Origin: Rickettsiales bacterium
GTDB taxonomy: Bacteria > Pseudomonadota > Alphaproteobacteria > Rs-D84
Assembly (NCBI GenBank): GCA_031266915.1
Contig: JAISAB010000002.1
Coordinates: forward strand, 12,738 to 76,737
Direction: 5' to 3'
DNA: 64,000 nucleotides
Below are positions 11,330 to 63,965 of the stretch, in pieces; the stretch's first letter is position 1; each line of letters opens with the position of its first letter. Under the pieces are notes generated by a model. It had not been told where the DNA came from. It did not search any database and worked only from the letters and a program-made list of their open reading frames with translations. Position numbers and translations under genes: made by a program.

Positions 11330-11437
11330 AAACACTAGTGTATAGTTAATAGTCATTAGTCAGTAGTCATTAGTGAATGTGTCGCGCCTTTGGCGCGATG
11401 ACTTTATTAACTATAGACTATTGACTGTGCACTATCG
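11330..11437. repeat. TAGTNNN-heptad long hairpin element with central GC hairpin (gtgtcgcgcctttggcgcgatgac)
   Basis: Arms tagtcat/tagtcag/tagtcat/tagtgaa and their reverse complements. Confidence 0.7.
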
Positions 11438-11695
11438 TTTACTTTCAATGCATTCTTCCCATTTTTTGTTGACGCACTTTTTTGTCCCAAGCAGACCCGT
11501 GGCCGTCAAGCATTGTACAATCATGCCGGATTCGCATACGTTGCTGGCGCATTTCCTGAACAATGCGTCGTCCAGATTTGGATAGCATGATTTCATGGCG
11601 CCAGTCGAAATTAGTTCGTTCGGCGCCGGGCTGTTCGTTTGCGGCGCGGCCCAGACGGCCGACGACGAAAATAAGAGAAAAATTAAAAATATCAT
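11432..11695 (-). CDS. Small secreted cysteine-rich protein (87 aa, signal peptide, 6 Cys)
   Basis: Signal peptide MIFLIFLLFSSSAVWA; preceded by the conserved structured leader. Confidence 0.5.
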   Translation of the reverse strand: MIFLIFLLFSSSAVWAAPQTNSPAPNELISTGAMKSCYPNLDDALFRKCASNVCESGMIVQCLTATGLLGTKKCVNKKWEECIESKR

Positions 11696-11872
11696 ATTTC
11701 AAACCTCGCTTTTCGTTCAGTTAAAAACCACCAAAATTTGGTGGTTGGAGGTTAAGAACTATAAATCAGTATAGCGTGCTTATTTTGCGGCAAGCCGCAT
11801 TATTCACAACCCTCCAACCTGATAAGTTGGAGGATTTTTTCGTCCCCGCGGACGCTGATTTCAGAGGTTCTT
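11696..11872 (-). promoter_or_regulatory. Conserved structured 5' leader (attenuator/riboswitch-like), subtype 1
   Basis: Gene-sense: hairpin CCTCCAAC/GGTTGGAGG; linker GAATAATGCGG; AACCTCCAACC; terminator CCACC-N-GGTGG-UUUUU; RBS; ATG. Confidence 0.65.
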
Positions 11873-12034
11873 AATCCTCGACGTCGGAACACCCGGCGTC
11901 ACCGGCAATGGTAGCATCTGTGAGATTTAAATCAATAAGATTTTTGTGTCAAGGCAAAAGGTAGAAGGCAGAAGTCAGAAGGTAAAAGGCAGAAGTAGGC
12001 AAGCTTGCCCCAAATCATAAATTTATTACTTCTG

Positions 12035-12095
12035 CTTTTAACTAATGGTTAGTGACAGTCCTGTGTGGTCGGCCAGGCGCGGCCTGGTTCATGAA
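12035..12095. repeat. Short repeat aactaatgg-tagtgaca-tcctgtgtggtcgg…gccaggcgcggc (second copy 12993..13060)
   Basis: Two copies seen in the window. Confidence 0.5.
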
Positions 12096-12129
12096 ACACT
12101 TCCGCTGATTAATTTTTCGCTATACTTTT

Positions 12130-12378
12130 CCTGAAAGCAATGCTACAATCCCTGTGTCGCGGAGAATTTCTGCGATGGGGTGTCACAGCCTTGCACATGC
12201 GTCGAGAGATGATTGGCGCGCTTTTGCGCCGATTTTTATATCACGGCGAAAAATAACTCCTGACCGGGTCAGGAGGGCTCGTGAATATATTGAATAAACG
12301 GCACAATTCATGTGATTGTTGTGAACCTCCTGACCGCCATTTACCGGCGGTTTTTCGTTCGAAAAAAAGGAGGTTAGG
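12130..12378 (+). promoter_or_regulatory. Conserved structured 5' leader (attenuator/riboswitch-like), subtype 2, upstream of a cysteine-rich secreted protein gene
   Basis: Hairpin CTCCTGACC/GGTCAGGAG; linker GAATATATTGAATAAACGG; AACCTCCTGACC; terminator GACCGCC-N-GGCGGTT-UUUUU; AAAAAAAGGAGG-ATG. Covaries with the other copies. Confidence 0.7.
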
Positions 12379-13002
12379 ATGAAGTTTAAAATATTAGTGC
12401 GCGCAACGGCATTTTTGATTGCGTTTGGATTCGCATTCGCATCGTCTGATTCATTTGCAGAGGAGCCTGTAGAAGAAGCCCCCGATTGTAGTGGTCAATC
12501 CTGGTGCACTTACTTTACTGGCGGTAGACGTTGTGGTGGTGAAGATTGCAATGTAGGTAGGTATGGTACTTGCGAGTGTGTGGAAATTGTTGCGCAATGC
12601 ATTTGCAACGCCGGATATGAAATTTTTGGCGACGGCGAAGATTGCACTTGCACCGCGAAATGCGCGAACACCTGCCAGTCCAGCGGCACCACGGCATGCG
12701 CCATCCAAAATGGCGCCGGCACCAAGCAGAATACAGGTGGAAACAACTGCACGGGCAACTGCACGTATGGAGCATGCACGGTATCGTCATGCAACAACGG
12801 GTACTATAAAAATGGAAATGTATGCACGGCATGTACGGCGCCCGACGGAATCACTTTGACTAATGGCAGCAATCCGGCTATCGGCATGAATATAAAAAGC
12901 AAGAACAACGGAGTGAATGGAAGAACCGATTGCTATATAGAAGGAAATTTCAACGATTCGACCGGGGCATTCGGCATCACTGGCACCAATTGCACTTATT
13001 AA
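12379..13002 (+). CDS. Secreted cysteine-rich protein (repetitive C-x-C / N-G-T-rich modules)
   Basis: Signal peptide MKFKILVRATAFLIAFGFAFA; more than 25 Cys; strong Shine-Dalgarno. Confidence 0.6.
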   Translation: MKFKILVRATAFLIAFGFAFASSDSFAEEPVEEAPDCSGQSWCTYFTGGRRCGGEDCNVGRYGTCECVEIVAQCICNAGYEIFGDGEDCTCTAKCANTCQSSGTTACAIQNGAGTKQNTGGNNCTGNCTYGACTVSSCNNGYYKNGNVCTACTAPDGITLTNGSNPAIGMNIKSKNNGVNGRTDCYIEGNFNDSTGAFGITGTNCTY

Positions 13003-21124: not shown

Positions 21125-21212
21125 TGATTAGTGCTTAGTTGATAGTGCATAGTTAATTAGTTCACTAATCACTATAAACTATTCACTATACACTACCAAC
21201 TATTTGTTTTTC
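21104..21212. repeat. TAGTNNN-heptad hairpin element between convergent ruvC and the 21211 gene
   Basis: tagtgat tagtgct tagttga tagtgca tagttaa … cactaat cactata aactatt cactata. Confidence 0.7.
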
Positions 21213-21609
21213 AGTTTCCGCACAGCGTGTGCGTGCCGGACGAATCGCGGACCTGGATGCATCCGTTTTGAAACCATATCTTTGCGCGTCCGGCCGGGGC
21301 CGCGGCCGATGGTTCCGATGTCTTGACGGTGTCGAAACGCGCGTCGTCGCCGGCCGCGACGGTGCCTGTATCCGTACCGACGGGAATCCGCGCGATACCT
21401 AATGTTCCACTTGTTATATTCGCCGCATTCGTCTGGTCCAAGTTCTGAACGTTACCGAGGCCGACCTGGGCCGCCGTCACGTTATGCGGATTGTCAGTTC
21501 GCGCGGTGTGCGCGTCGACATAGCTCTTGCCGGCAATTTCCGCCAATGCCGGCGTCGCGGCAAAAAAACATAATAAAAACATAATTCGTTTTTTCATATT
21601 CACAGCCAT
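21211..21609 (-). CDS. Secreted tail-fibre-like protein, short paralog (signal peptide + 'EIAGKSYVD…DNPHNVTAAQVGLGNVQN…' N-module + small Cys C-terminus)
   Basis: N-module about 80% nucleotide-identical to the start of the upstream gene 21600..22475; motifs recalled from phage tail-fibre N-terminal domains. Confidence 0.55.
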   Translation of the reverse strand: MAVNMKKRIMFLLCFFAATPALAEIAGKSYVDAHTARTDNPHNVTAAQVGLGNVQNLDQTNAANITSGTLGIARIPVGTDTGTVAAGDDARFDTVKTSEPSAAAPAGRAKIWFQNGCIQVRDSSGTHTLCGN

Positions 21610-22475
21610 ATGTCCGACAGCATATTTATCATGTCGCCGCCGGACAGGTAATAGACTTCGTCATTGCAGCTGTTGACGCAATTGGTATAGCTGTTGCCGC
21701 CAAGCTGGTTCCAGTTTGAATTTGTCGGGTAATACCATCGGGACGTGCGGCCGTATTTGTCCGTTGCGCGAATCCAGCAATATCTGCGGGCGTGGTATTC
21801 CATAGTCTGGTCAATCGCGACTTCTTCGATAACGCGTCCGGTGCCGCCGGGCCGCGTGGTCGACGAGCATGTCGCGACCAGGAAAAATTTCTGGCCCAGA
21901 TGCGCCGCCAGCGCCCCGGCGCACAAATTCGACGTGCAGCTTTTGCCGCAATACTCGCCCCGATACAAACTAACGCTTACCAAGGTCCCGTTCGGCCCCA
22001 TTACCAATCCGGCGGTTTCGCCCGCGACGCCGCACATCAGTCCCAGCTCGTGTTTGCTGACGTAATCGACCGGCTGTCCGGCGCCGTTTTCGCACAGGGC
22101 GGGGGTCGTCACGCCGCCGCTGCGAACATAAAGGCATCCGTTTTCATACCATACCTTATCGCGGCCGTCGGCGGGAAGGCGCCAGGGCTCGGCCAATTCG
22201 ACGGTGTCGAACCGTGCGTCGTCGCCGGCCAAGACAGTGTTTTCATTTGTTCCAATGGGAATTCGCGCGGCATCCAATATGCCGGCGGTTATGTTCGCCG
22301 CGTTCGTCTGGTCCAAATTCTGGACGTTTCCCAGACCGACTTGGGTCGCCGTCACGCTATGCGGATTATCCGTGCGCGCGGCGTGCGCGTCGATGTACGC
22401 GTTGCCGGCGACATCAGCCCTGGCGTTTGCAACGCATGCGATTATGCAAATAAGACCGGCGGCGATGGATTTCAT
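21600..22475 (-). CDS. Secreted tail-fibre-like protein with Cys-rich C-terminal domain (long paralog)
   Basis: Signal peptide MKSIAAGLICIIACVANARA; same N-module as 21211; ATG at 22475 chosen (ORF tool start 22505 is GTG). Confidence 0.6.
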   Translation of the reverse strand: MKSIAAGLICIIACVANARADVAGNAYIDAHAARTDNPHSVTATQVGLGNVQNLDQTNAANITAGILDAARIPIGTNENTVLAGDDARFDTVELAEPWRLPADGRDKVWYENGCLYVRSGGVTTPALCENGAGQPVDYVSKHELGLMCGVAGETAGLVMGPNGTLVSVSLYRGEYCGKSCTSNLCAGALAAHLGQKFFLVATCSSTTRPGGTGRVIEEVAIDQTMEYHARRYCWIRATDKYGRTSRWYYPTNSNWNQLGGNSYTNCVNSCNDEVYYLSGGDMINMLSDIWL

Positions 22476-22665
22476 TTTTAACCTGTTTGACACAAAGCCA
22501 CCCACAGCGAACGCAAGGGTGGTTGGAGGTTAAAGACTATAATTTTCAGAAAATAGCGGGCTTATTCGATATATTCGCCGCCCTCCAACCGATGGTTGGA
22601 GGTTTTTATCGTCCCCGCGGACGCTGAAAATTAAGAGGTCTTTACGCCCCGCCGCAGGCCTTTGC
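22476..22665 (-). promoter_or_regulatory. Conserved structured 5' leader, subtype 1 (as 11696..11872)
   Basis: Hairpin AACCTCCAACC-atc-GGTTGGAGG; linker CGAATATATCGAATAAGC; AACCTCCAACC; hairpin CCACCC-N-GGGTGG; shared distal module cgtccccgcggacgctga…agaggtc. Confidence 0.65.
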
Positions 22666-25462: not shown

Positions 25463-25554
25463 AATAGCAAATATCAAATAGCAATTTGGTGCAGAATTGG
25501 GCTATAACACCATAAACGGCACCCCATTTGCTATTTGATATTTGCTAATTGCTA

Positions 25555-25720
25555 TTTTTCTTCTGGACACGGGCGTCACAAAGGCGCACAATGCCATCAC
25601 AGGACCGCTAATCCAAACCATCCTTGGATTGTACATAGTTCCCGTTTTCAAAAATCCCGCATTTCCGCCGTCTCTTATTTCCCATTTATTGCCTAATCTA
25701 AACCATGGTTTTTATATCAT
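25555..25720 (+). promoter_or_regulatory. 165-bp duplicated promoter/5'-UTR block (second copy 63805..63965) containing TTATTGCCTAATCTAAACCATGGTTTTTATATC (-35/-10-like)
   Basis: About 90% identical to 63805..63965; the TTGCCT-N17-TATAT motif is also at 44290 and 44395; upstream of a secreted tail-fibre-like gene. Confidence 0.55.
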
Positions 25721-25743
25721 TCTTGGCAATGGGGAAAAGAGAG

Positions 25744-26385
25744 ATGAACAGAATAATTTCCAAGTTATCACGTGTGTTATTATGTGTGGCGCTTATCGCG
25801 TTATTTGCACCCATGTCGGCCCGGGCCGAAATCGCGTCTAAGTCCTATGTAGATAGTCTGGCGATGCCGAACGGTGACGATTACTTGCAAAAAGCCGGCG
25901 GCACGATGACCGGTGAAATCGCGATGGGCGGAAATAAAATAGCAGGTTTGGGCGCGCCGACGGACGGCGACGATGCGACGACCAAGGACTATGTTGATAA
26001 TCTGGCCGCGGCCGGCGGAGGGACCATCGGCGGCGGTTCCGTCCCATCGTGGGCCGCGCTGAACGGCGAAGACTGGGCGGACAGCGGCTGGGGCGTCAAA
26101 TGGGTTGTCGATAACGGAACATATATGGTTGACGGCGTCGGCACATGCCTGTCGACAGATAGCAGAAGCGGCATCCTACCCAGCACATTCGGTTACGGCC
26201 CGAACTGCTGGTGCAGGGTCGAAGGAATAAACAATACGCGCGTTTTGGGCGCCTGGGTGTTCAAGCATACTGAAAGCGGCGGCTATGAAGATTGTTATGC
26301 GACCTGCGCGTCAAGATGCGCCAATTGCGTACGCGTAGGCTCGTCCGATGGATGCAGCCGCGCCGCGTTGTTCACTGCGCCATGA
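25744..26385 (+). CDS. Secreted tail-fibre-like protein ('EIASKSYVD…GGTMTGEI…KDYVDN' N-terminus) with Cys-rich C-terminus
   Basis: Signal peptide MNRIISKLSRVLLCVALIALFAPMSARA; motifs recalled from phage tail-fibre/collar N-termini; C-terminal CWC…CYATCASRCANC. Confidence 0.55.
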   Translation: MNRIISKLSRVLLCVALIALFAPMSARAEIASKSYVDSLAMPNGDDYLQKAGGTMTGEIAMGGNKIAGLGAPTDGDDATTKDYVDNLAAAGGGTIGGGSVPSWAALNGEDWADSGWGVKWVVDNGTYMVDGVGTCLSTDSRSGILPSTFGYGPNCWCRVEGINNTRVLGAWVFKHTESGGYEDCYATCASRCANCVRVGSSDGCSRAALFTAP

Positions 26386-43255: not shown

Positions 43256-44167
43256 ATGTATGACGTTATTATTTTGGGCTCGGGACCGGCCGGATTGACG
43301 GCGGCGCTGTATTGCGCCCGCGCAGGAAAGCGGACGCTGGTCCTGGGCGGCGACAAGCTGGGCGGCCAGACGGCCGGCATCGCCATATTGGAAAATTACC
43401 CGGGCTGGGCCGGCAGTGGGCTGGAACTGTCCAAATTCATAAAGAACCAGGCGACTAGCTTCGGCGCTGAGATTATTCTCGCCAGCGCGAAATCTGTTAC
43501 GGCGAATCAGAAACAGGGAATCGGATTTACGGTCGTTGCCGACAACGCGGCGGAATATGAATCGCGGGCCGTCATCGCGTCGACCGGCGCGTCGCCGCGC
43601 AAGTTGGAAATCGCCGGCGCGCGCGAATTGTTCGGCCGTGGCGTATCCTATTGCGCGACGTGCGATGGATTCTTTTACAACGGCAAGAGCGTACTGGTCA
43701 TCGGCGGCGGGAATTCCGCGCTGAACGACGCGCTGTATCTGGCGGATTTGGCCGAAACGGTAAAGATTGTTTATCGCAAGGATTCCTTTGCCCGCGCCGA
43801 ACAGGTTATGGTCGACCGCGTCAATGAAAGGTCCAACATCGAATGTCTGTTCAACACGGAACTGGCAAGCCTGGCGCTTAAACCGGACAGCGCGGATGGC
43901 GAATTGATTGCGACCACGACAAGCGGCGATACGATTGCATGCGACGGCGTGTTTGTCGCCATCGGGCACGAGGCCAATACGGATTATCTGCCCGAAGACA
44001 TCAAGCGCGACGACATGGGGCGTCTGGCGCAAAGCGAATTGCCGCCGGGCCTGTTTGTTGCCGGCGACGTGCAAAGCGACCTGAAGATGCAGATTGCAAC
44101 TGCGGTCGGCACTGGCTGTTCGGCCGCGATGGACGCGATTGCGTTTATTAACACCAGTAGTGAATAG
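43256..44167 (+). CDS. trxB: Thioredoxin-disulfide reductase TrxB
   Basis: MYDVIILGSGPAGLTAALYCARAG…CATCDGF…GGGNSALNDALYL; ATG at 43256 with GGAGA Shine-Dalgarno. Confidence 0.9.
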   Translation: MYDVIILGSGPAGLTAALYCARAGKRTLVLGGDKLGGQTAGIAILENYPGWAGSGLELSKFIKNQATSFGAEIILASAKSVTANQKQGIGFTVVADNAAEYESRAVIASTGASPRKLEIAGARELFGRGVSYCATCDGFFYNGKSVLVIGGGNSALNDALYLADLAETVKIVYRKDSFARAEQVMVDRVNERSNIECLFNTELASLALKPDSADGELIATTTSGDTIACDGVFVAIGHEANTDYLPEDIKRDDMGRLAQSELPPGLFVAGDVQSDLKMQIATAVGTGCSAAMDAIAFINTSSE

Positions 44168-44262
44168 TCATTAGTCAGTAGTCTATAGTCAATTAGTTAA
44201 TAAAGTCGTCGGCTCCGCCGACACATTCACTAGTGACTATTGACTAATGACTATTCACTAGC
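44160..44262. repeat. TAGTNNN-heptad hairpin element with central GC hairpin (gtcgtcggctccgccgacac)
   Basis: agtgaatagtcattagtcagtagtctatagtcaattagtt … cactagtgactattgactaatgactattcactag. Confidence 0.7.
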
Positions 44263-44509
44263 GTTTTAATAGTTGACTTTTTTCACGATAAATACTATTG
44301 TCAGCGTGACGGATTGCCTAATCTAAACCAGCGTTTTTGCGACGCTTTTTTTATGTTTTTTATTCATTGGTTTTCTCGGCTTTTTTCATTTCTTTTATTG
44401 CCTAATCCAAACGCTGGTTTTGATTAGCAGTCTGGGGGTTGCCATAAAGGCGCGGGTTTCCCAGTGTTTTTTGCCTTTTAAACAGGTTGCGAAAATCGGG
44501 GTTCCGATT

Positions 44510-45229
44510 ATGGCGATATTGCTGTGTTTATTCGCGTTCGGCCCGGCGCATGCCTATGATAGAGACTGTAACGACGAATATGAAAATTACTGTGGATTTG
44601 TGCTTCAAATTGGAAGAAGAGATACGGTAACTTGTTCTGGGGAGTATTATATGGGCGAATATATCGGAGACGTTACATGCGGTTGTAGTGATCCCGAAAA
44701 AGAACTTTCACGTGAAGCTGGCGGTTGTGTTTGTATGTCGGGATATTATGGTCTGGGCGGTAACGAAGCCTGCAATAAATGTCCGGACAACGGTCTTGCG
44801 GACAGCGGTGGGGATAACAAAGGTGGCTTGCTCAATGGTAGTATAGAAGATTGCTATAAAATCATGAATAATGTTTCTGATTCGTCGGCTCATGCCACGC
44901 TAAGGCAAATGTGTTTTTATAAAGACGGTTCGTACAGCGACTGCACGATGACATCGATTGTTAGGTGCGAGGCGGGATATTACCGCGTTAACGCGTCAGA
45001 TTTATCGTGTGTCGCGGTCGGCGTGAATTATTACAGCGTTTCGCCTTTTTCCCGCCAGTTGTGCGAGTCTTATACCAATCCGTCAGGCGGCGCGTCCTAT
45101 GGTCAGACAAGCGGTTACGGTACCGACGCAGACGCCAAAACCGATTGCAAAATCCCGGGAACCGAGGTCTTTACCGACACCACCGGCAGTTGGAATTACG
45201 ACTACGGCGGATGCCCGTGGAGCAATTAA
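44510..45229 (+). CDS. Secreted cysteine-rich protein (signal peptide MAILLCLFAFGPAHA; more than 25 Cys)
   Basis: Cys-rich repeats (CGC, CVC, CNKC…); upstream TTGCCTAATC(T/C)AAAC motifs. Confidence 0.55.
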   Translation: MAILLCLFAFGPAHAYDRDCNDEYENYCGFVLQIGRRDTVTCSGEYYMGEYIGDVTCGCSDPEKELSREAGGCVCMSGYYGLGGNEACNKCPDNGLADSGGDNKGGLLNGSIEDCYKIMNNVSDSSAHATLRQMCFYKDGSYSDCTMTSIVRCEAGYYRVNASDLSCVAVGVNYYSVSPFSRQLCESYTNPSGGASYGQTSGYGTDADAKTDCKIPGTEVFTDTTGSWNYDYGGCPWSN

Positions 45230-45276: not shown

Positions 45277-47001
45277 ATGAAATACACATTGAAAAACAAC
45301 CTGATAAAGATGGCGGTCTGGTCGAAATCGGCTGCATTGACAGCATTAATGTTCATGGCGGCATGCGACGGGACGGAGCCGATTGAACCGGTCAATCCGA
45401 CGCCGGAACCAGGACCGGAACCGAAAACGGAAAAGGTTCAAATAAATCTGAATGCCTTGTCCGATTTCGAATCGAATCTGAAAACTCCGCGACGCGACGG
45501 CAAGACCTATGACGCGTTTGTTTTGCAAGACATCGCCGCGGATTCGGTTGGTCTGGCGAAAACCTTGGCCGACTGGAAATCGATGAACGACACCGTGCCG
45601 AATTTAAAAACGGATTGGAAAGGTAAGGGAATTTACGTTCCAAAAAAGAAAACCGTTTACGCGTTCGGCGATTATGTTGCGGCTGGAATGCCAAAGATTA
45701 TCGCGAACCCTGAAAACGGCGTTATGCCGTCTGCGGCCAGCGCGGCCGATTCGACGGAATACAGCAAGCTGGGGCTGACGCTTGAAGTCCGCCGGGAAAA
45801 AGCGTCGAACGACGCTGAAACTGTCGAGGATTTAGCGAACTTGGTCAACGCTGCGCAGGTCGCAACGGAGCCGGTCGTTATCAACGTGACGGACGTTCTA
45901 GAGGTCGGCAACGGCAATGCCGGGAAGCTGGAAGCCGCTTTGGCGCAGATAGTTGCAAGCCCAAACATAAGCGTCGGGGGAAAGATAGAGATTGCGCCTA
46001 CAAGTGATTCGGTCGCGGTAACGAATGCCTTTATTGGGAATCTGGCTGCGACGAATGGTCGGATAGTCGGCGGCGGCGCGAACGCGTTGTTTATAAATGA
46101 TGTCAAAGATTCGGAAACCCTGCGCACAGTTCTGGCCGATGGCGCGCGGGTCAGAACGGACGTGTCCGTGAACTTCGCGAATACGGATATTGCGATTCCG
46201 AATCAAATAATCTATAACGCAAATGCGCAATTAATGGGCGCCGCGACAAAATCCGCCGCGGTCGCGCCGACATTCGCCCAGGGCGTCAGGGGACTGCCGT
46301 CGCGCAATGGGTGGCGGAATAAGAACTATCGCCTGCGGACTGAATCCAGCATCGACCTGTATAATAACGAGGAGGAAATACTGTCGCGCATATCGCAGCC
46401 GTCCGTTCGCGGCACGGTCGATTATCCGAATCCTGACATCTGGTGCGATAACGACCCGGTTTATCGAAACATATTTCTGGACAAGACACGGGTGTATTCT
46501 GATTCAGTCGGTTTGGCGATTAACCAGCGCGTCAAAGGCTCGCACGGTCAGACCAAGATACGCACGGTCAGCATGTCGTCGGCTATGTCGTATGACATCG
46601 CGCATTATTACGAAGATGCGAACATGGTGACAAAATCGCCGGGCGGCATAGAGCGGCTGCAGGTTATTCTGCTGCATATTAACAGCGCGAGATTGCCGCT
46701 GAATAATCCTGTATTGGCCGAGCATGCGGACTTGCACGTTTTTCCGTATACGATTGACGCGATGAAGTATTGCTTTGTGGTGCCAGATAATGTCGTTTTG
46801 GAAAAAGGGGATGGATTTGAAGTTATGTTTGAGAACGACAGAAAGGTGATGAAGCTGATAGAGGGCGCCGGCGTTATCACAATATCGAACCGCAAGGTGA
46901 ATGATGCGGGCGCGGGCATTCTGGGTCAGAGAAAGAGTTTCTTTTGGATAACGTCCGAAGAGTACGCCCAGTACGTCGCCGATGGAAAACGGGCAAGATA
47001 A
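45277..47001 (+). CDS. Large hypothetical lipoprotein (574 aa)
   Basis: Lipobox LMFMAAC; Pro/Glu-rich linker then a long soluble domain; no recognised family. Confidence 0.55.
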   Translation: MKYTLKNNLIKMAVWSKSAALTALMFMAACDGTEPIEPVNPTPEPGPEPKTEKVQINLNALSDFESNLKTPRRDGKTYDAFVLQDIAADSVGLAKTLADWKSMNDTVPNLKTDWKGKGIYVPKKKTVYAFGDYVAAGMPKIIANPENGVMPSAASAADSTEYSKLGLTLEVRREKASNDAETVEDLANLVNAAQVATEPVVINVTDVLEVGNGNAGKLEAALAQIVASPNISVGGKIEIAPTSDSVAVTNAFIGNLAATNGRIVGGGANALFINDVKDSETLRTVLADGARVRTDVSVNFANTDIAIPNQIIYNANAQLMGAATKSAAVAPTFAQGVRGLPSRNGWRNKNYRLRTESSIDLYNNEEEILSRISQPSVRGTVDYPNPDIWCDNDPVYRNIFLDKTRVYSDSVGLAINQRVKGSHGQTKIRTVSMSSAMSYDIAHYYEDANMVTKSPGGIERLQVILLHINSARLPLNNPVLAEHADLHVFPYTIDAMKYCFVVPDNVVLEKGDGFEVMFENDRKVMKLIEGAGVITISNRKVNDAGAGILGQRKSFFWITSEEYAQYVADGKRAR

Positions 47002-50465: not shown

Positions 50466-52208
50466 ATGTCAATTCGCATACTGCCTGATTCACTAATCGA
50501 TCAAATCGCCGCCGGCGAAGTGGTCGAGCGTCCCGCCAGCGTCGTCAAAGAACTGGTCGAAAACGCGCTGGATGCCGGCGCGGATGCGATTATCGTCGAC
50601 GCGGTCGACGGCGGGCGCACGCTGCTCAGCGTCATCGACAACGGATGCGGGATGTCGCGCGACGATTTGGAAAAAAGCATTACCCGGCACGCGACGTCGA
50701 AACTGCCCGACAACGATTTGATGAACATCAATTACATGGGATTCCGCGGCGAGGCGCTGCCGTCCATCGCGTCCGTGTCCGACATGACCATCGATACGCG
50801 AAGCATGACAGAATCACACGGCTGGCAGATGGATTGCGCCACTGGCCAGATAAAGCCGTCAGCGTGGGAGGCCGGCACGCGCATCCGCGTCGCGAATCTG
50901 TTTGCTAAAACGCCGGCCCGATTGAAATTCCTGCGGACCGACCGTGCCGAGATGATGTCCGTGACCGAGGTCGTAAAGCGCCTGGCGATGGCGCGCCCGG
51001 ACGTTGGATTCACGCTGAACAATCGCTGGCGTTTTCCAAAGGGCCAGAGTCTGGCCGAGCGCATTATCTCCGTCATGGGCGAAGAAGTTCGCGGCCGGAT
51101 GCTGGCGGTCGGCGACGCGTCAAATTCCGCCGGCACGCTGTCGCTGCGCGGATTTATTTCCGAACCGACGCTGCGCCGCGCGTCGTCAGTCGACCAGTAT
51201 CTGTTCGTCAACGGCCGGCCGGTCAAGGACAAGGTTTTGGTCGGCGCGCTGCGCGCCGCATATATGGATGTCATGCATGCGCGCGAATTTCCGCTGTGCG
51301 CGCTGTATCTGGAACTGGACCCGCGCAGCGTCGACGTGAACGTGTCGCCCGCCAAGACCGAGGTTCATTTTCTGGAACCGTCGCGCGTGCGCGGCTTTAT
51401 CATCCGAACATTGCGCGAAGTCCTGGCCAAAACAATGTTCGATTCTTTTTCAGAATCCGTGTCGGACGGCGGCGCGCCCTTTGTTCCCGCGCCGCACCAA
51501 GCGTCCTTTATGATGGGATTCAGTGACGTCGGCACTGTGGTGCGCAGCCGCCCGGCGGCATTTTTCGATACACAAATCCCTGTCAGTTTTGACGGATTCA
51601 GACCAGAAACGCCGGCCGTCGTCGACGAAGATACCGTCCATACCCGGCCGCTGGGGCGCGTCATTGGTCAATACAGCAAAAAATATATCGTTGCCGAAAG
51701 CGAACAGGGATTCGTAATCGTAGACCAGCACGCGGCGCACGAAAGAATCGTCTACGAAACCCTGCGCATGCATGCTATCAAGGTCCAGCCACTGTTAGCG
51801 CCGATTGTAATCAATATGAAGCCCGAGCAGGTCGACGCCGTTCTGACCGTCCGGGACGAGATGAAAAACTGCGGTCTGGCAATCGACCAATTCGGCGCGG
51901 ACAGCATCGCGATATTCGAAAAGCCCGCCGACTGGGATTTGAACTGGCAGACATTGCTGTCCGATATTGCGGACGAGGTGACGGCCCACGGGCATTCGTC
52001 CCAGCTGCATGAAAAACTGCACCTGAAGCTGGCGAATCACGCCTGCCACCATTCCGTACGCGCCGGCCAGCGACTGGATTACGCGCAGATGGACGCGCTG
52101 CTGCGCGATATTGAAAACACCGAGCGCGCCGGCCAATGCAACCACGGCCGCCCGGTATATAAGATTATAAAACAGCGAGAGCTGGATGGCTGGTTCGAGC
52201 GTATTTAA
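50466..52208 (+). CDS. mutL: DNA mismatch repair protein MutL
   Basis: MSIRILPDSLIDQIAAGEVVERPASVVKELVENALDAGA… GHKL ATPase N-terminus; C-terminal dimerisation domain. Confidence 0.9.
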   Translation: MSIRILPDSLIDQIAAGEVVERPASVVKELVENALDAGADAIIVDAVDGGRTLLSVIDNGCGMSRDDLEKSITRHATSKLPDNDLMNINYMGFRGEALPSIASVSDMTIDTRSMTESHGWQMDCATGQIKPSAWEAGTRIRVANLFAKTPARLKFLRTDRAEMMSVTEVVKRLAMARPDVGFTLNNRWRFPKGQSLAERIISVMGEEVRGRMLAVGDASNSAGTLSLRGFISEPTLRRASSVDQYLFVNGRPVKDKVLVGALRAAYMDVMHAREFPLCALYLELDPRSVDVNVSPAKTEVHFLEPSRVRGFIIRTLREVLAKTMFDSFSESVSDGGAPFVPAPHQASFMMGFSDVGTVVRSRPAAFFDTQIPVSFDGFRPETPAVVDEDTVHTRPLGRVIGQYSKKYIVAESEQGFVIVDQHAAHERIVYETLRMHAIKVQPLLAPIVINMKPEQVDAVLTVRDEMKNCGLAIDQFGADSIAIFEKPADWDLNWQTLLSDIADEVTAHGHSSQLHEKLHLKLANHACHHSVRAGQRLDYAQMDALLRDIENTERAGQCNHGRPVYKIIKQRELDGWFERI

Positions 52209-52777
52209 TATGGGCAATCAGATGTATATGTAAAGCTGCCGGTGGAATCTGAACCAGCGGTGCCAGCCGGTATATAGCAGCTGTTGACCGATGTCGCACC
52301 TGTACCGGACGTTGTGCCGCCGCCCGAGCATGGTTCGCAAATGGAACCGGACAAATAAAATCCCTTGTTGCATGTAATAGAACAATTTCCCGCCGACTTG
52401 GTGCACGAAGTATTACACTCGTTTGTGCCGCTGCATGCTTGATAACGCTTGGATGCGCCATTTGTTGGCTGTGTGCAACCGGTTGTGCTGTATGTCTGGT
52501 CACATTCGCAGATGTTTGGGTCGCAGGTTTCCCAATATGAGTTTTTGCATACATAACCGTCAATTTTTGTTCCGTTCTGTTGGTTTTTATTACATGTTTT
52601 GCCATTGCATTCCGAAACGACAGAGCAATCCATGTTTGCGCACGCGTAGCATTGACCGTTGTTTGCCAAAAGAAAGTACCCGTGGCCGCTTTCGGGAACA
52701 GATGCCGCTGCGCAGGGCCCCGTGTTGGCAAAGATGCATAAAGCCGTGTATAAAAATATAAATCCTGATTTCTTCAT
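52205..52777 (-). CDS. Secreted cysteine-rich protein (signal peptide; C-x-C/T-rich repeats)
   Basis: MKKSGFIFLYTALCIFANTGPCAAA signal peptide; more than 25 Cys; preceded by the conserved leader. Confidence 0.6.
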   Translation of the reverse strand: MKKSGFIFLYTALCIFANTGPCAAASVPESGHGYFLLANNGQCYACANMDCSVVSECNGKTCNKNQQNGTKIDGYVCKNSYWETCDPNICECDQTYSTTGCTQPTNGASKRYQACSGTNECNTSCTKSAGNCSITCNKGFYLSGSICEPCSGGGTTSGTGATSVNSCYIPAGTAGSDSTGSFTYTSDCPY

Positions 52778-53050
52778 TCCAAACCTCCTTTTTTAGCGAA
52801 TGAAAAAACCGCCGGGAAAAAGGCGGTCGGGAGGTTTACGACAATCCAATGAATTGTGCCGCTTATTCAATATATTCGCGAGCCCTCCCAACCAAGTCGG
52901 GAGATATTTTTCGCCGCAATAACAAAAATGGCGCGAAAGCGCGCCGATTTGTCAACAGCGCATTGGAAAGAGGTCGTAACACCCCGTCGCGGAAACTCTC
53001 CGCGGCACTTGAATCATACCAATAGTGAAATGTTTTTACAAGTGGTATAA
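52778..53050 (-). promoter_or_regulatory. Conserved structured 5' leader, subtype 2 (as 12130..12378)
   Basis: Gene-sense: CTCCCGAC/GTTGGGAG hairpin; GAATATATTGAATAAGCGG; AAACCTCCCGACC; terminator GACCGCC-N-GGCGGTT-UUUUUU; CATTCGCTAAAAAAGGAGG-ATG; distal module ccccgtcgcggaaactctccgcggcac. Confidence 0.7.
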
Positions 53051-53123: not shown

Positions 53124-53672
53124 TCATGGCGCGAAAGCCGATAGCAGCGCGGACACGAAAGCGGAACTGCTGGCGTCAGTTGAAGATACGCACTCATTCG
53201 CACACTTCGTTGCGCAATTGGCACCCCCGCTAAGTGACCCGTAATAAACCCAGCCGGCATAGTTTACATTATCGGAAATTCTTTTCAAACGGCACCAGCA
53301 GTACCATTCGGGGTAATTTAACTCCGTACCGCTGTGATTTCTGACGATATTGCAGCTCGCAATACCGGAACCGGCGGCAGAGGTAAGGCTGCATACGCTC
53401 TGAATAAGGTAGCCTCTGACCGCATTATTCGGAGTATGAGAAGATTGATAAACAGTGTATCCTTTGTATTCAAGTTCCAAGCCGGCATAGTTGCTGCCGG
53501 AATTATACTGCGTGTAGATGCCGTCCGCATAGTCTTCTGCCGGGTTCGCGTTTCCGGCATCGCCGCCGATTTCAAACTTCCCAGTTTCATCCTCTAAGGC
53601 TAAAACGGCAAAAGCGCCGCGCATTGCAGATACAAGCGCCCATGCGAATACGGCCAGGGTTAATTTTTTCAT
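53124..53672 (-). CDS. Hypothetical secreted protein with several Cys (signal peptide MKKLTLAVFAWALVSA)
   Basis: ATG at 53672 chosen (signal peptide); preceded by the conserved leader. Confidence 0.55.
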   Translation of the reverse strand: MKKLTLAVFAWALVSAMRGAFAVLALEDETGKFEIGGDAGNANPAEDYADGIYTQYNSGSNYAGLELEYKGYTVYQSSHTPNNAVRGYLIQSVCSLTSAAGSGIASCNIVRNHSGTELNYPEWYCWCRLKRISDNVNYAGWVYYGSLSGGANCATKCANECVSSTDASSSAFVSALLSAFAP

Positions 53673-53900
53673 CCAAACCTCCTTTTTTTTTGCGAATGAA
53701 AAAACCACCAGAAATTGGTGGTTGGAGGTTAGCGACTATCATTGCAAATAGCGGCGGTATTCGATATATTCCCGCGCCCTCCAACCGAAACGATTGGAGA
53801 CACAAAAAACATGCACGACAACGCTTCGTGCCAGCGTGCAATGAAGGAGGTCGCTAAACCCCGTCGCGGAAACTCTCCGCGGCACAAAGATTATGCACCG
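53673..53900 (-). promoter_or_regulatory. Conserved structured 5' leader, subtype 2: candidate attenuator/riboswitch
   Basis: Gene-sense: CTCCAA/TTGGAG hairpin; GGTTGGAGG…linker GAATATATCGAATACCGCC…AACCTCCAACC; terminator CCACC-AATTTCT-GGTGG-UUUUUU; CATTCGCAAAAAAAAAGGAGG-ATG. Confidence 0.7.
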
Positions 53901-62540: not shown

Positions 62541-63725
62541 GTGAAAAAGCGCAAAAAGCTGTTATGGAAATCGTATATTAAACAAACAGTACTGACATTG
62601 ACCATAACGGTTGCCAGCAGCTGGTTGATTTTCAAAGCAATCGATTCTTTTACGGTCGGCAATCCAAAGCAATCGGCGCAGTCGTCGCGGTCTGCCGCCG
62701 AAACCCGGGCAGATTCCCTGCAGATGGTGCTTAAAAGCTTATCGCCGGAAAAATTATCAAAGATAAAAGCATTGTATGAAGATACCTATGCATTTTCGGA
62801 GCCTGATGCAAAACTGGGCAGTTCGGAAAATCCCGGCGCAGAATCAAATCGCGGCCCAACGTTGAGCGTATCGGATTGGCCCATATTCAATGAATTAAAA
62901 AAAATTGATATAGGAATCGAATGGAGAAAAATGGGCTATGTCGCCATAAACAACGATACCGTTTATATTCAAGACAGAGACACGTTGGCGCTTGGCATAG
63001 AATATGGGTGCGCATACAATAATGTGCCGCAGATAGACATACATTATTTTAAATACGACGGGGATATAGAAGCGCTGAAAAAAATCGCCGAGCAACACAA
63101 TTCCTATGAATTTCGTACGGAAATCGTCTGTCACGAGATTCGTCACGCCGATAATTTCAGACATATCATAAGGGTCCCGAAAGAGCAAAGGACGCGCGCG
63201 GTTGCGGCGGCCGATGAATTGTTTGCGACAATCGCCGGCAACCTGAGCGATTATGCCGAGATGGGTCCCGAATCAAAAGGCTGGAATAAATCGTTTCGCC
63301 AAAAAATAAGCGTATGGGATGTGGATTATAAGCTTCCGGAAAATTCCCGGCCAATCATAGATTCTGCGATAACTTCGGCTTTGGATGCGCTGGAAGGTCA
63401 ACACTCTTACAGAAAACGTTTTATAGACAGGGAAGGATATGAATACCACCATTTGATTGAAGAGCGTTACGGAGCAAAAATCAGGACCGCCGCAGATGCC
63501 GTATTCATGATGCGACACGGATTAAAAATAAATGGCAAATTGACCGATATATTCAGCCTGGCGTCTGAAAAGGTGCGCAGGCGCGCGAATGATTTTATAA
63601 ATTCCAATGACGACGATATGAGGCTTGTCATCGGATTGCACGACAACAATGTAAAGTTCTTTAATCCGCCCGTATTTATATTGTCGAACCTTTTTAAACC
63701 GGCACATACTGAAACCAAAAATTAA
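62541..63725 (+). CDS. Hypothetical membrane-anchored protein with HExxH motif (putative zinc metallopeptidase-like), low GC
   Basis: N-terminal transmembrane helix; …IVCHEIRHADN…; about 43% GC. Confidence 0.45.
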   Translation: MKKRKKLLWKSYIKQTVLTLTITVASSWLIFKAIDSFTVGNPKQSAQSSRSAAETRADSLQMVLKSLSPEKLSKIKALYEDTYAFSEPDAKLGSSENPGAESNRGPTLSVSDWPIFNELKKIDIGIEWRKMGYVAINNDTVYIQDRDTLALGIEYGCAYNNVPQIDIHYFKYDGDIEALKKIAEQHNSYEFRTEIVCHEIRHADNFRHIIRVPKEQRTRAVAAADELFATIAGNLSDYAEMGPESKGWNKSFRQKISVWDVDYKLPENSRPIIDSAITSALDALEGQHSYRKRFIDREGYEYHHLIEERYGAKIRTAADAVFMMRHGLKINGKLTDIFSLASEKVRRRANDFINSNDDDMRLVIGLHDNNVKFFNPPVFILSNLFKPAHTETKN

Positions 63726-63800
63726 TAGTCAATAGTGCATAGTGCTTAGTAAGCGGTTTAACTATGCACGACTTGCTATTCGTCCATATCACTAACCAGT
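63726..63800. repeat. TAGTNNN-heptad element after the stop of the 62541 gene
   Basis: taatagtcaatagtgcatagtgcttagtaag…aactatgcac. Confidence 0.6.
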
Positions 63801-63804
63801 ATTT

Positions 63805-63965
63805 ATTTTTTTGCTGGACACGGGCGCCACAAAGGCGCACAATGCGCTTACGGGACCGCTAATCCAAACCATCCTTGGATTGTACATAGTTGCTATTCTT
63901 AAAAATCCCGCATTTCCGCCATATCTTATTTCCCATTTATTGCCTAATCTAAACAATGGTTTTTA
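63805..63965 (+). promoter_or_regulatory. Second copy of the 165-bp promoter/5'-UTR block (see 25555..25720)
   Basis: ctggacacgggcgccacaaaggcgcacaatg…ttattgcctaatctaaacaatggtttttatg; the downstream gene lies beyond the window. Confidence 0.55.

Follow-up and report, generated by a model that had tools for sequence, protein, structure and literature searches.

Five short genes for apparently exported proteins, A to E, lie in a 64,000-nucleotide stretch (hereafter the window) of a metagenome-assembled genome (MAG) of a Rickettsiales bacterium (GenBank GCA_031266915.1, contig JAISAB010000002.1, positions 12,738 to 76,737). They raise the question of whether they form one family of cysteine-rich proteins under common regulation and what such proteins would do for the bacterium that makes them. 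The original prediction, made from the DNA alone, treated all five as one expanded family of secreted proteins and offered adhesins, toxin-like or antimicrobial peptides, or host-interaction effectors as functions. Profile matches identify three of the five (A, B and C) as anciently diverged paralogues of one large unnamed family, here family 1. We read these three, with a probability of roughly 60%, as proteins that a partner-dependent bacterium expresses conditionally and uses outside the cell for binding or contact. The five genes are the following.

Gene A, 12379-13002, + strand: 207 aa, 21 cysteines (10.1%), predicted to be exported, family 1
Gene B, 44510-45229, + strand: 239 aa, 18 cysteines (7.5%), predicted to be exported, family 1
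Gene C, 52205-52777, - strand: 190 aa, 21 cysteines (11.1%), predicted to be exported, family 1
Gene D, 11432-11695, - strand: 87 aa, 6 cysteines (6.9%), predicted to be exported, orphan, in neither family
Gene E, 53124-53672, - strand: 182 aa, 7 cysteines (3.8%), predicted to be exported, family 2

An unnamed family of cysteine-rich proteins with predicted export

All five open reading frames (ORFs) are present as originally proposed and begin with a signal-peptide-like sequence as read by eye (A, MKFKILVRATAFLIAFGFAFASSDSFA with putative cleavage before EE; C, MKKSGFIFLYTALCIFANTGPCAAA with putative cleavage before S); in B, read from the ATG at 44510, this start has no charged n-region. An AGGAGG sequence lies 6-8 nt 5' of the ATG in A, C and E (7 nt in A), and C is listed by NCBI as LBJ73_00815, a hypothetical protein of the MAG Rickettsiales bacterium encoded on a contig of 151 kb. 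The cysteine enrichment is real, because nine housekeeping ORFs of the window pool to only 1.18% cysteine, although the 18-21 cysteines of A, B and C fall short of the more than 25 first claimed. The proposed C-x(2-6)-C modules hold for A and C, with 9-10 such spacings, and not for B, with one. The richness in G, T and N was also found in A and C, where these residues and S make up 41-43% of the sequence.

In order to place these proteins, a family profile was built from A, B, C and their first relatives and searched against 1.84 billion cluster representatives. The search returned 1333 representatives at E<=1e-3 and 431 at E<=1e-10, and nearly all of the matches are proteins of 160-260 aa that align end to end with the profile and carry a conserved module at the C terminus. 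Positions 1-204 of the profile align with residues 1-207 of A (P0033 in our numbering) and with residues 1-190 of C, and positions 5-206 with residues 30-269 of the TTG-started form of B. When a 91-member profile was compared with every stop-to-stop ORF of the window, only A, B and C matched, with E-values of 1.4e-12, 3.8e-19 and 7.6e-22, respectively; the same search found no detectable relation of D (E=0.24) or E (E=1.7) to them. The three also share a motif at the very end of the protein, D-C-[YK]-I-x...D-[ST]-T-G-[AS]-[FW]...C-x-[YW]. The proposed family of five is thus reduced to three homologous proteins, with D and E sharing only a signal peptide and the leader described below.

Each of A, B and C spans the profile from the signal peptide to the C-terminal module, which rules out that they are fragments of one ancestral gene. 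Housekeeping homologs did not appear either, every named relative being a hypothetical protein, and NCBIfam gave no match for A-E or five relatives. PHROGs gave no match for A-E, and a phage origin of A-C was rejected on this ground. No relatives of D were found among the related loci examined.

The start of B required a choice between codons. Gene callers chose the TTG at 44420, and the CTG at 44414 was also considered. The orthologues P0006, P0008, P0009 and P0011 begin with MKF or MKY directly at the signal peptide, which favors the ATG at 44510 and disfavors the TTG.

Family-1 relatives sit singly, flanked by housekeeping genes. Named sources are Alphaproteobacteria or Rickettsiales MAGs in all cases but one, and by these sources the family appears to occur in small-genome, gut-associated Alphaproteobacteria. 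The exception, P0254, lies on a 473-kb contig of a bin labeled Muribaculaceae (GCA_023665245.1). Its neighbors include a weak Rickettsia 17-kDa antigen-like gene, S1 and trigger factor, and its upstream region resembles the leader of A, C and E, which together suggest that the label of the bin is wrong. At another locus (L005:5368-6229) the leader is followed by a short cysteine-rich signal-peptide ORF (MKKLCLICGIALYSANAGAAC...) and then by the family-1 gene P0003; the start assigned to P0003 may be incorrect, or both ORFs may belong to a two-gene unit.

A variable front and a conserved tail

Among the 91 members, mean pairwise identity is 63% over the C-terminal 62 columns and 26% over the mature N-terminal part. 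The module of ~60 aa ends the protein, and the mature part in front of it is hypervariable and rich in cysteine. The tail has the consensus Y-R-C-A-x-G-Y-Y-G-x2-T-x-G-x-S-G-C-T-R-C-P-S-S-G-G-V-Y-G-T-T-A-x2-G-A-T-A-I-T-x-C-Y-I-P-S-G-T-x-F-S-D-S-T-G-S-G-T-Y-T-G-N-C-Y-Y-x-N. Because some relatives carry other N-terminal domains, namely two Peritrophin-A (CBM_14) chitin-binding domains in front of the tail (P0140), a saposin-like domain (SapB_2; P0074) and CarboxypepD_reg domains (CarbopepD_reg_2; P0173), the front part appears to act as a payload that can be exchanged, with the tail kept constant. Peritrophin-A and saposin are mainly eukaryotic families.

This arrangement bears on whether the proteins are secreted toxins or bacteriocin-like antimicrobials directed against competitors. 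Small, exported and disulfide-rich products with many paralogues and conditional expression would suit such a role, and the N terminus of A scores just under the threshold of DUF6520, a family of unknown function (25.0 vs 25.4 bits). However, polymorphic toxins usually combine a conserved N-terminal part with a variable C-terminal part, the reverse of the conserved tail and variable front seen here. No immunity, dedicated export or processing genes stand beside any copy, Pfam, NCBIfam and PHROGs gave no toxin-domain match, and ~180 aa for the mature protein is large for defensin-like peptides. We consider a toxin or antimicrobial function very improbable.

AlphaFold2 (AF2) gave confident models of the tail only. 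The model of C reaches predicted local distance difference test (pLDDT) values of 81-93 over residues ~131-190, where it consists of short stacked beta-hairpins; that of A, built with the 91-sequence alignment, reaches 76-83 in the tail, with a mean of 61 and poor values outside the module. Foldseek against the PDB placed the EphA2 cysteine-rich domain and 4-1BB at the top, and the family profile gave two chance-level matches only against PDB sequences. Ephrin_rec_like (PF07699, formerly GCC2_GCC3), the cysteine-rich repeat of Eph receptors and many eukaryotic and protist surface proteins, matches 10 of the 91 members at E<=0.01, and its gathering score is exceeded by the longer relatives P0064, P0101 and P0093 (31-38 bits vs 23.1). 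The cysteine and hairpin pattern of this domain is present in the family consensus (YRCAxGYYG...SGCTRCPSSGG...ITxC); C has NKGFY...CEPCSGGG and A has NNGYY...CTACTAPDG, both without the proline, and B lacks C-x2-C. With A-C below threshold and the longer relatives above it, we describe the tail module as a probable diverged form of the Ephrin_rec_like/TNFR-type repeat that bears a C-terminal extension specific to the family, and we do not place A-C in PF07699.

By its consensus, family 1 resembles Ephrin_rec_like in the C-x2-C-P-x-G...C spacing and the G-[YF]-Y motif and, by prediction, in a disulfide ladder of beta-hairpins and an extracellular location. It differs in being made of bacterial single-module proteins of ~200 aa without a transmembrane or kinase part, and in the extra tail Y-I-P...S-D-S-T-G...C-Y-Y, which always forms the protein end. 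The variant-specific surface proteins (VSPs) of Giardia (PF03302) offer a second parallel, with predicted export, ~10% cysteine with C-x-x-C, many paralogues, and a variable N-terminal part before a conserved C-terminal end. C scores 15 bits against PF03302 (E=0.012; A and B gave no hit), and the cluster of P0002 carries a precomputed PF03302 hit. However, A-C stay below the gathering cut-off of 31.4 bits and have neither a C-terminal transmembrane helix nor a CRGKA tail (A ends in ...NCTY, B in ...GCPWSN and C in ...DCPY, with no hydrophobic C-terminal stretch in any), and family-1 genes are bacterial, with bacterial regulation and no sign of one-at-a-time expression. Likeness to the cysteine-rich domains of tumor necrosis factor (TNF) receptors such as 4-1BB (CD137) is limited to a weak structural resemblance of the C-terminal module and a weak TNFR_ELAPOR1 match among the Pfam signals; these matches all have E>=1, and no sequence match to any solved structure was found. 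Nothing points to the granulin, defensin or keratin folds that had been put forward for comparison, the only signals being these weak ones to TNF-receptor and Eph-receptor cysteine-rich domains.

The same likenesses raise the question of whether the bacteria took over the module from a eukaryote, be it the host or a gut protist, in which case the proteins would be decoys for host receptors or ligands of them and not adhesins. The weak matches to Giardia VSP and TNFR-like families and the Peritrophin-A and saposin domains of relatives are consistent with such mimicry. Additionally, Ephrin_rec_like is regarded as a domain of ancient eukaryotes, and its rare bacterial cases have been ascribed to transfer (PMC6993872). 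However, no close eukaryotic homolog was found, the top 150 profile matches all being short and of bacterial-type architecture; the genes have bacterial promoters, Shine-Dalgarno (SD) sequences and leaders and are flanked by housekeeping genes, and the similarity is too weak to give a direction, or to favor common descent over convergence of disulfide-rich hairpins. Acquired mimicry appears quite unlikely.

A cysteine content of 7.5-11% could also reflect metallothionein-like metal binding in the periplasm, with the cysteines holding metal rather than forming disulfides. The spacing and flanks of the cysteines (C-x2-C-P, G-Y-Y), however, follow disulfide-bonded repeat families, AF2 predicts hairpin stacks in the module, export to an oxidizing compartment disfavors free thiolates, and the extreme sequence variability is ill-suited to a metal buffer. 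Such a function is extremely improbable.

Leader RNAs and the genes behind them

A conserved leader RNA had been proposed ahead of most of the five genes. This leader, here leader-1, is real for A, C, D and E, and B has none. Ahead of A and C it is a folded RNA of ~220 nt. The window holds five copies that score 83-139 bits with a covariance model, and the next best score is 14.7 bits.

Leader-1 of A, 12144-12378, + strand: model core 12175-12357, 135.8 bits; -10 box TACAAT at 12144-12149, P1 hairpin, terminator-like hairpins at 12211-12234 and 12332-12352
Leader-1 of C, 52778-53041, - strand: core 52802-52987, 139.4 bits; promoter-like sequence at 53041-53013 (TTGTAA-17-TATGAT), terminator-like hairpins at 52945-52930 and 52828-52807
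Leader-1 of E, 53673-53889, - strand: core 53698-53864, 113.4 bits; terminator-like hairpins at 53831-53813 and 53723-53703
Leader-1 of D, 11721-11881, - strand: diverged copy, 82.6 bits, E=1.8e-18
Fifth leader-1 copy, 22491-22652, - strand: 92.3 bits, E=8e-21

The upstream regions of A, C and E align over ~230 nt and that of D more loosely, the copy of D having an extra hairpin inserted in an otherwise invariant loop. For a distant relative in another genome, leader identity is ~75% at a protein identity of 29%. A scan of 185,579 species genomes with the leader DNA pattern yielded 33 loci, all from uncultured gut Alphaproteobacteria; the sources include rabbit, Hadza human and goat rumen samples, Ca. 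Enterousia, the "Rickettsiales bacterium" Gx485_bin8 and a closed 958-kb genome. The covariance model gave 46 hits at E<=0.001 in 37 related loci, at least 12 of them beyond the sites of the exact DNA pattern.

Covariation was tested on 32 distinct leaders with slid partners as controls. In the five-helix structure 98.6% of cells were paired, compared to 30-52% in the controls, and double changes were observed in 15 of the 33 pairs (129 cells vs 3-16 in the controls). A long-range helix pairs GGGGUGUnnnnAC near the 5' end with GUnnnnAACCUCC ~150 nt downstream, with four consecutive covarying pairs. It encloses a variable hairpin, a CUCCnnn/nnnGGAG hairpin, a helix closing the GAAUAUAUUGAAUAA loop, and a small AnU hairpin. 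The invariance of the GAAUAUAUUGAAUAA loop is partly an effect of pattern-based retrieval, and copies lacking the loop, such as that of D, are recovered by the covariance model as well. A further covarying hairpin was seen by eye between a TATAAT-like -10 box and the long helix, and a terminator scan placed an intrinsic-terminator hairpin with a T-run directly 3' of the long helix. Leaders of the cysteine-rich genes have a second terminator-like hairpin within a variable insertion.

The long helix has as its 3' strand AACCUCC[U/A], a sequence complementary over 6-8 nt to the SD region of the leader's own gene, and the matching is class-specific (CUCCUG with CAGGAG; CCUCCA with UGGGGG). In the leader of A the anti-SD sequence AACCUCCU faces the SD with 8-nt complementarity. 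This complementarity suggests that formation of the long helix would free the ribosome-binding site. Leader-1 resembles riboswitch and attenuator leaders in being a long structured 5' untranslated region that combines a covarying junction of several helices with an intrinsic terminator and an anti-SD. Unlike them, it has no Rfam 15 family, precedes exported proteins and XRE regulators and not a metabolic pathway, and in some copies stands in tandem without an ORF. Rfam 15 applied to the whole window at gathering threshold found two tRNAs only and no leader family, and at E<=10 on 11600-12400, which holds two leader copies, short chance-level matches only.

Tandems of two to three copies ~250 nt apart occur at L021:1061-1708, L030:5039-6035, L011:753-1168 and L026:3263-3681, and several of these copies have no ORF behind them. 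Given these copies, leader-1, which carries its own -10 box and terminator, may in addition form a free-standing small RNA gene. The divergent intergenic region between D and A (11900-12060) is repeat-rich and partly palindromic, with CTTCTGCC/GGCAGAAG units, and its repeats gave spurious Rfam matches (small nucleolar RNA, microRNA) at E ~0.05.

Four groups of ORFs lie behind leader-1 in the window and the 33 loci, and most of these ORFs encode signal-peptide proteins. These are about a dozen family-1 proteins; family-2 proteins; other signal-peptide proteins, including Ephrin_rec_like, Listeria-Bacteroides-repeat and phage-tail-fiber-motif proteins; and about ten small XRE-type helix-turn-helix proteins. 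Because XRE regulators and other exported proteins also follow it, leader-1 is most likely a regulon-wide element and not specific to the cysteine-rich genes. The idea that exported cysteine-rich proteins have expanded here outside the housekeeping functions, under cis-regulation of a dedicated kind, is borne out in this sense, except that the leader is not reserved for them. Two further genes of the window encode predicted exported proteins with tail-fiber-like motifs.

Predicted exported 291-aa protein, 21600-22475, - strand: behind the fifth leader-1 copy, family-2-like C terminus
Predicted exported 226-aa protein with a leader of a second type (leader-2), 25540-26385, + strand: tail-fiber-like motifs, family-2 C-terminal module

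The first of these, which like its leader was not in the earlier list of genes, has the N-terminal phage-tail-fiber motif NPHxVTxxQVGLGNV and is followed at 21211-21609 (- strand) by a 132-aa paralogue of its N-terminal part. Both proteins match PHROG tail-fiber/minor-tail families (4e-6 to 6e-9); both have predicted signal peptides, and no phage genes lie nearby. Family 2 is defined by the C-terminal module C-W-C-[RK]...W...C-x3-C-x3-C ("CWC") and includes, in addition to E, the ORFs at 25705-26382 and 21600-22475 and ORFs in loci L019, L024 and L035. E matches the ORF at 25705-26382 over this module (BLASTP 1e-7); direct BLASTP of E against ORFs of the L024 and L035 type was not significant, and its link to family 2 rests on 25705-26382 and L019.

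These findings allow a bolder reading, in which leader-1 would be a new riboswitch-like class that, in small-genome gut Alphaproteobacteria, switches on an exported binding repertoire in response to a cue from the partner or host. The repertoire would comprise the cysteine-rich Ephrin-receptor-like proteins, the "CWC"-tail family and the tail-fiber-like proteins; the multi-helix junction with its invariant GAAUAUAUUGAAUAA loop, the terminator and the anti-SD would form the switch, and the C-terminal modules would be sorting or anchoring tags serving surface display across the outer membrane. We offer this contact regulon tentatively and hold it to be rather improbable as a whole.

The second leader type precedes B, which is followed by a possible partner gene.

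Leader-2 of B, 44300-44509, + strand: two TTGCCTAATC[TC]AAAC boxes, at 44314 and 44398, 84 nt apart
Predicted lipoprotein, 45277-47001, + strand: 574 aa, lipobox FMAAC read by eye, 3' of B

A TTGCCTAATC motif had been noted ahead of some genes, and it does occur four times in the window against 0.14 expected, twice upstream of B. The other two copies lie 16 nt before the starts of the ORF at 25705-26382 (at 25689) and of a truncated ORF at 63956, within two leaders of ~170 nt (25540-25704 and 63790-63955, + strand) that are ~90% identical to each other. Both leaders contain CGCTAATCCAAACC and TTGCCTAATCTAAAC boxes, with TTGCCTAATCTAAAC 16 nt before the ATG, and neither has an obvious SD sequence. 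The region upstream of B is a looser version, in which the first box is followed by a hairpin and T-run; this box and hairpin are kept upstream of the B orthologue P0006 in L041, one of the two loci examined. Leader-2 is probably a second leader type, again ahead of predicted exported proteins. Just upstream of it, AT-rich short repeats of the TAGT[CG]A/ACTA type (44160-44290, 63720-63775 and 25520-25550; e.g., agtcattagtcagtagtctatagtcaattagtta) could be protein-binding or UP-like elements.

In both loci with B orthologues these are followed by predicted lipoproteins of 551-553 aa (L040:1481-3142 and L041:2158-3813), with full-length identities to the window lipoprotein of 54% and 49%, respectively. 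B and the lipoprotein therefore form a conserved gene pair as judged from gene order, and the lipoprotein, which has no Pfam or PHROG match, is a candidate envelope partner of B.

A proposed role in contact with partner cells

In the favored reading, A-C would be exported by Sec and folded by disulfides outside the cytoplasm. The variable N-terminal part would bind a target on a partner cell, host surface or particle, and the constant C-terminal module would provide a common scaffold, anchoring or assembly function. Leader-1 would make expression conditional: the ribosome-binding site would become accessible once the long helix forms, and transcription would also have to pass the terminator. 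Of the functions first suggested, adhesion or host interaction agrees with the variable front and conserved tail, the swapped domains and the co-regulation with tail-fiber-like proteins, whereas no signal of a toxin or antimicrobial was found.

Several points weigh against this reading. A-C have neither a membrane anchor nor a lipobox, nor any known signal for export across the outer membrane; their exposure on the surface of a diderm is thus not accounted for, and they could stay periplasmic. Models of A and C have low confidence over the N-terminal two thirds, every structural match has E>=1, and Ephrin_rec_like gives B only 13.1 bits (E=0.084) against a gathering score of 23.1, with no hit for A or C. 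The difference in SD complementarity between a leader's own class and the other classes is modest (6.1 vs 5.4 nt), and the terminator and long helix do not overlap, leaving control of read-through unexplained. Finally, by a crude count the number of mature cysteines is odd in 56 of the 91 members, so not every cysteine can be in an intramolecular disulfide.

The odd counts also suit a structural role: an unpaired thiol would be available to bond with another molecule, and the proteins would form a periplasmic or outer-membrane layer cross-linked by disulfides as OmcA and OmcB do in Chlamydia. Very high cysteine content, the lack of a recognizable outer-membrane export signal and the host or partner dependence of the bacterium also favor such a layer, and the chlamydial proteins are likewise exported, cysteine-rich and made by a host-dependent bacterium. 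However, a hypervariable N-terminal part (26% identity) and swaps of chitin-binding and saposin-like domains are not expected of a structural layer. Neither A-C nor the 91 relatives have a Pfam match to the chlamydial Omc families; there is no sequence or profile similarity to them, and family-1 proteins are much smaller than OmcB. Additionally, Rs-D84 genomes retain peptidoglycan and rod-shape genes (PMC12306168). We regard an envelope layer as unlikely, and binding or contact as the better account of A-C.

The lifestyle of the lineage gives this account its setting. Ca. Enterousia, of the order Rs-D84, has genomes of <1 Mb, lacks most biosynthesis and is presumed to depend on other cells (PMC12306168). 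Alphaproteobacteria of the Rs-D84/Enterousia type are widespread in human, livestock and insect guts, and their contact mechanism is not known (PMC12306168); Rs-D84 has also been found in termites (PMC11257099). Literature searches on Enterousia, Rs-D84, bacterial Ephrin_rec_like and DUF6520 turned up neither the proteins nor the leader RNA. The general kind is known, namely cysteine-rich repeat proteins that are exported, pair a variable front with a constant end and are encoded behind a regulatory leader; for the family, the tail module, the lineage and leader-1 seen here, Pfam, NCBIfam, Rfam and the searchable literature offer no description.

With at least 431 robust clusters and no Pfam or NCBIfam model, family 1 would be a rare case in which a cysteine-rich repeat of eukaryotic type underlies a large family in bacteria. 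Leader-1 is the best-supported and most directly testable part of this work, an unusually well supported candidate for a new structured RNA (15 covarying pairs in 32 sequences) whose ligand or partner can be sought directly. That a small genome keeps paralogues of a fast-diversifying exported family points to molecules that mediate the dependence of these bacteria on their partners, and a conserved structured RNA standing over cysteine-rich and tail-fiber-like proteins points the same way.

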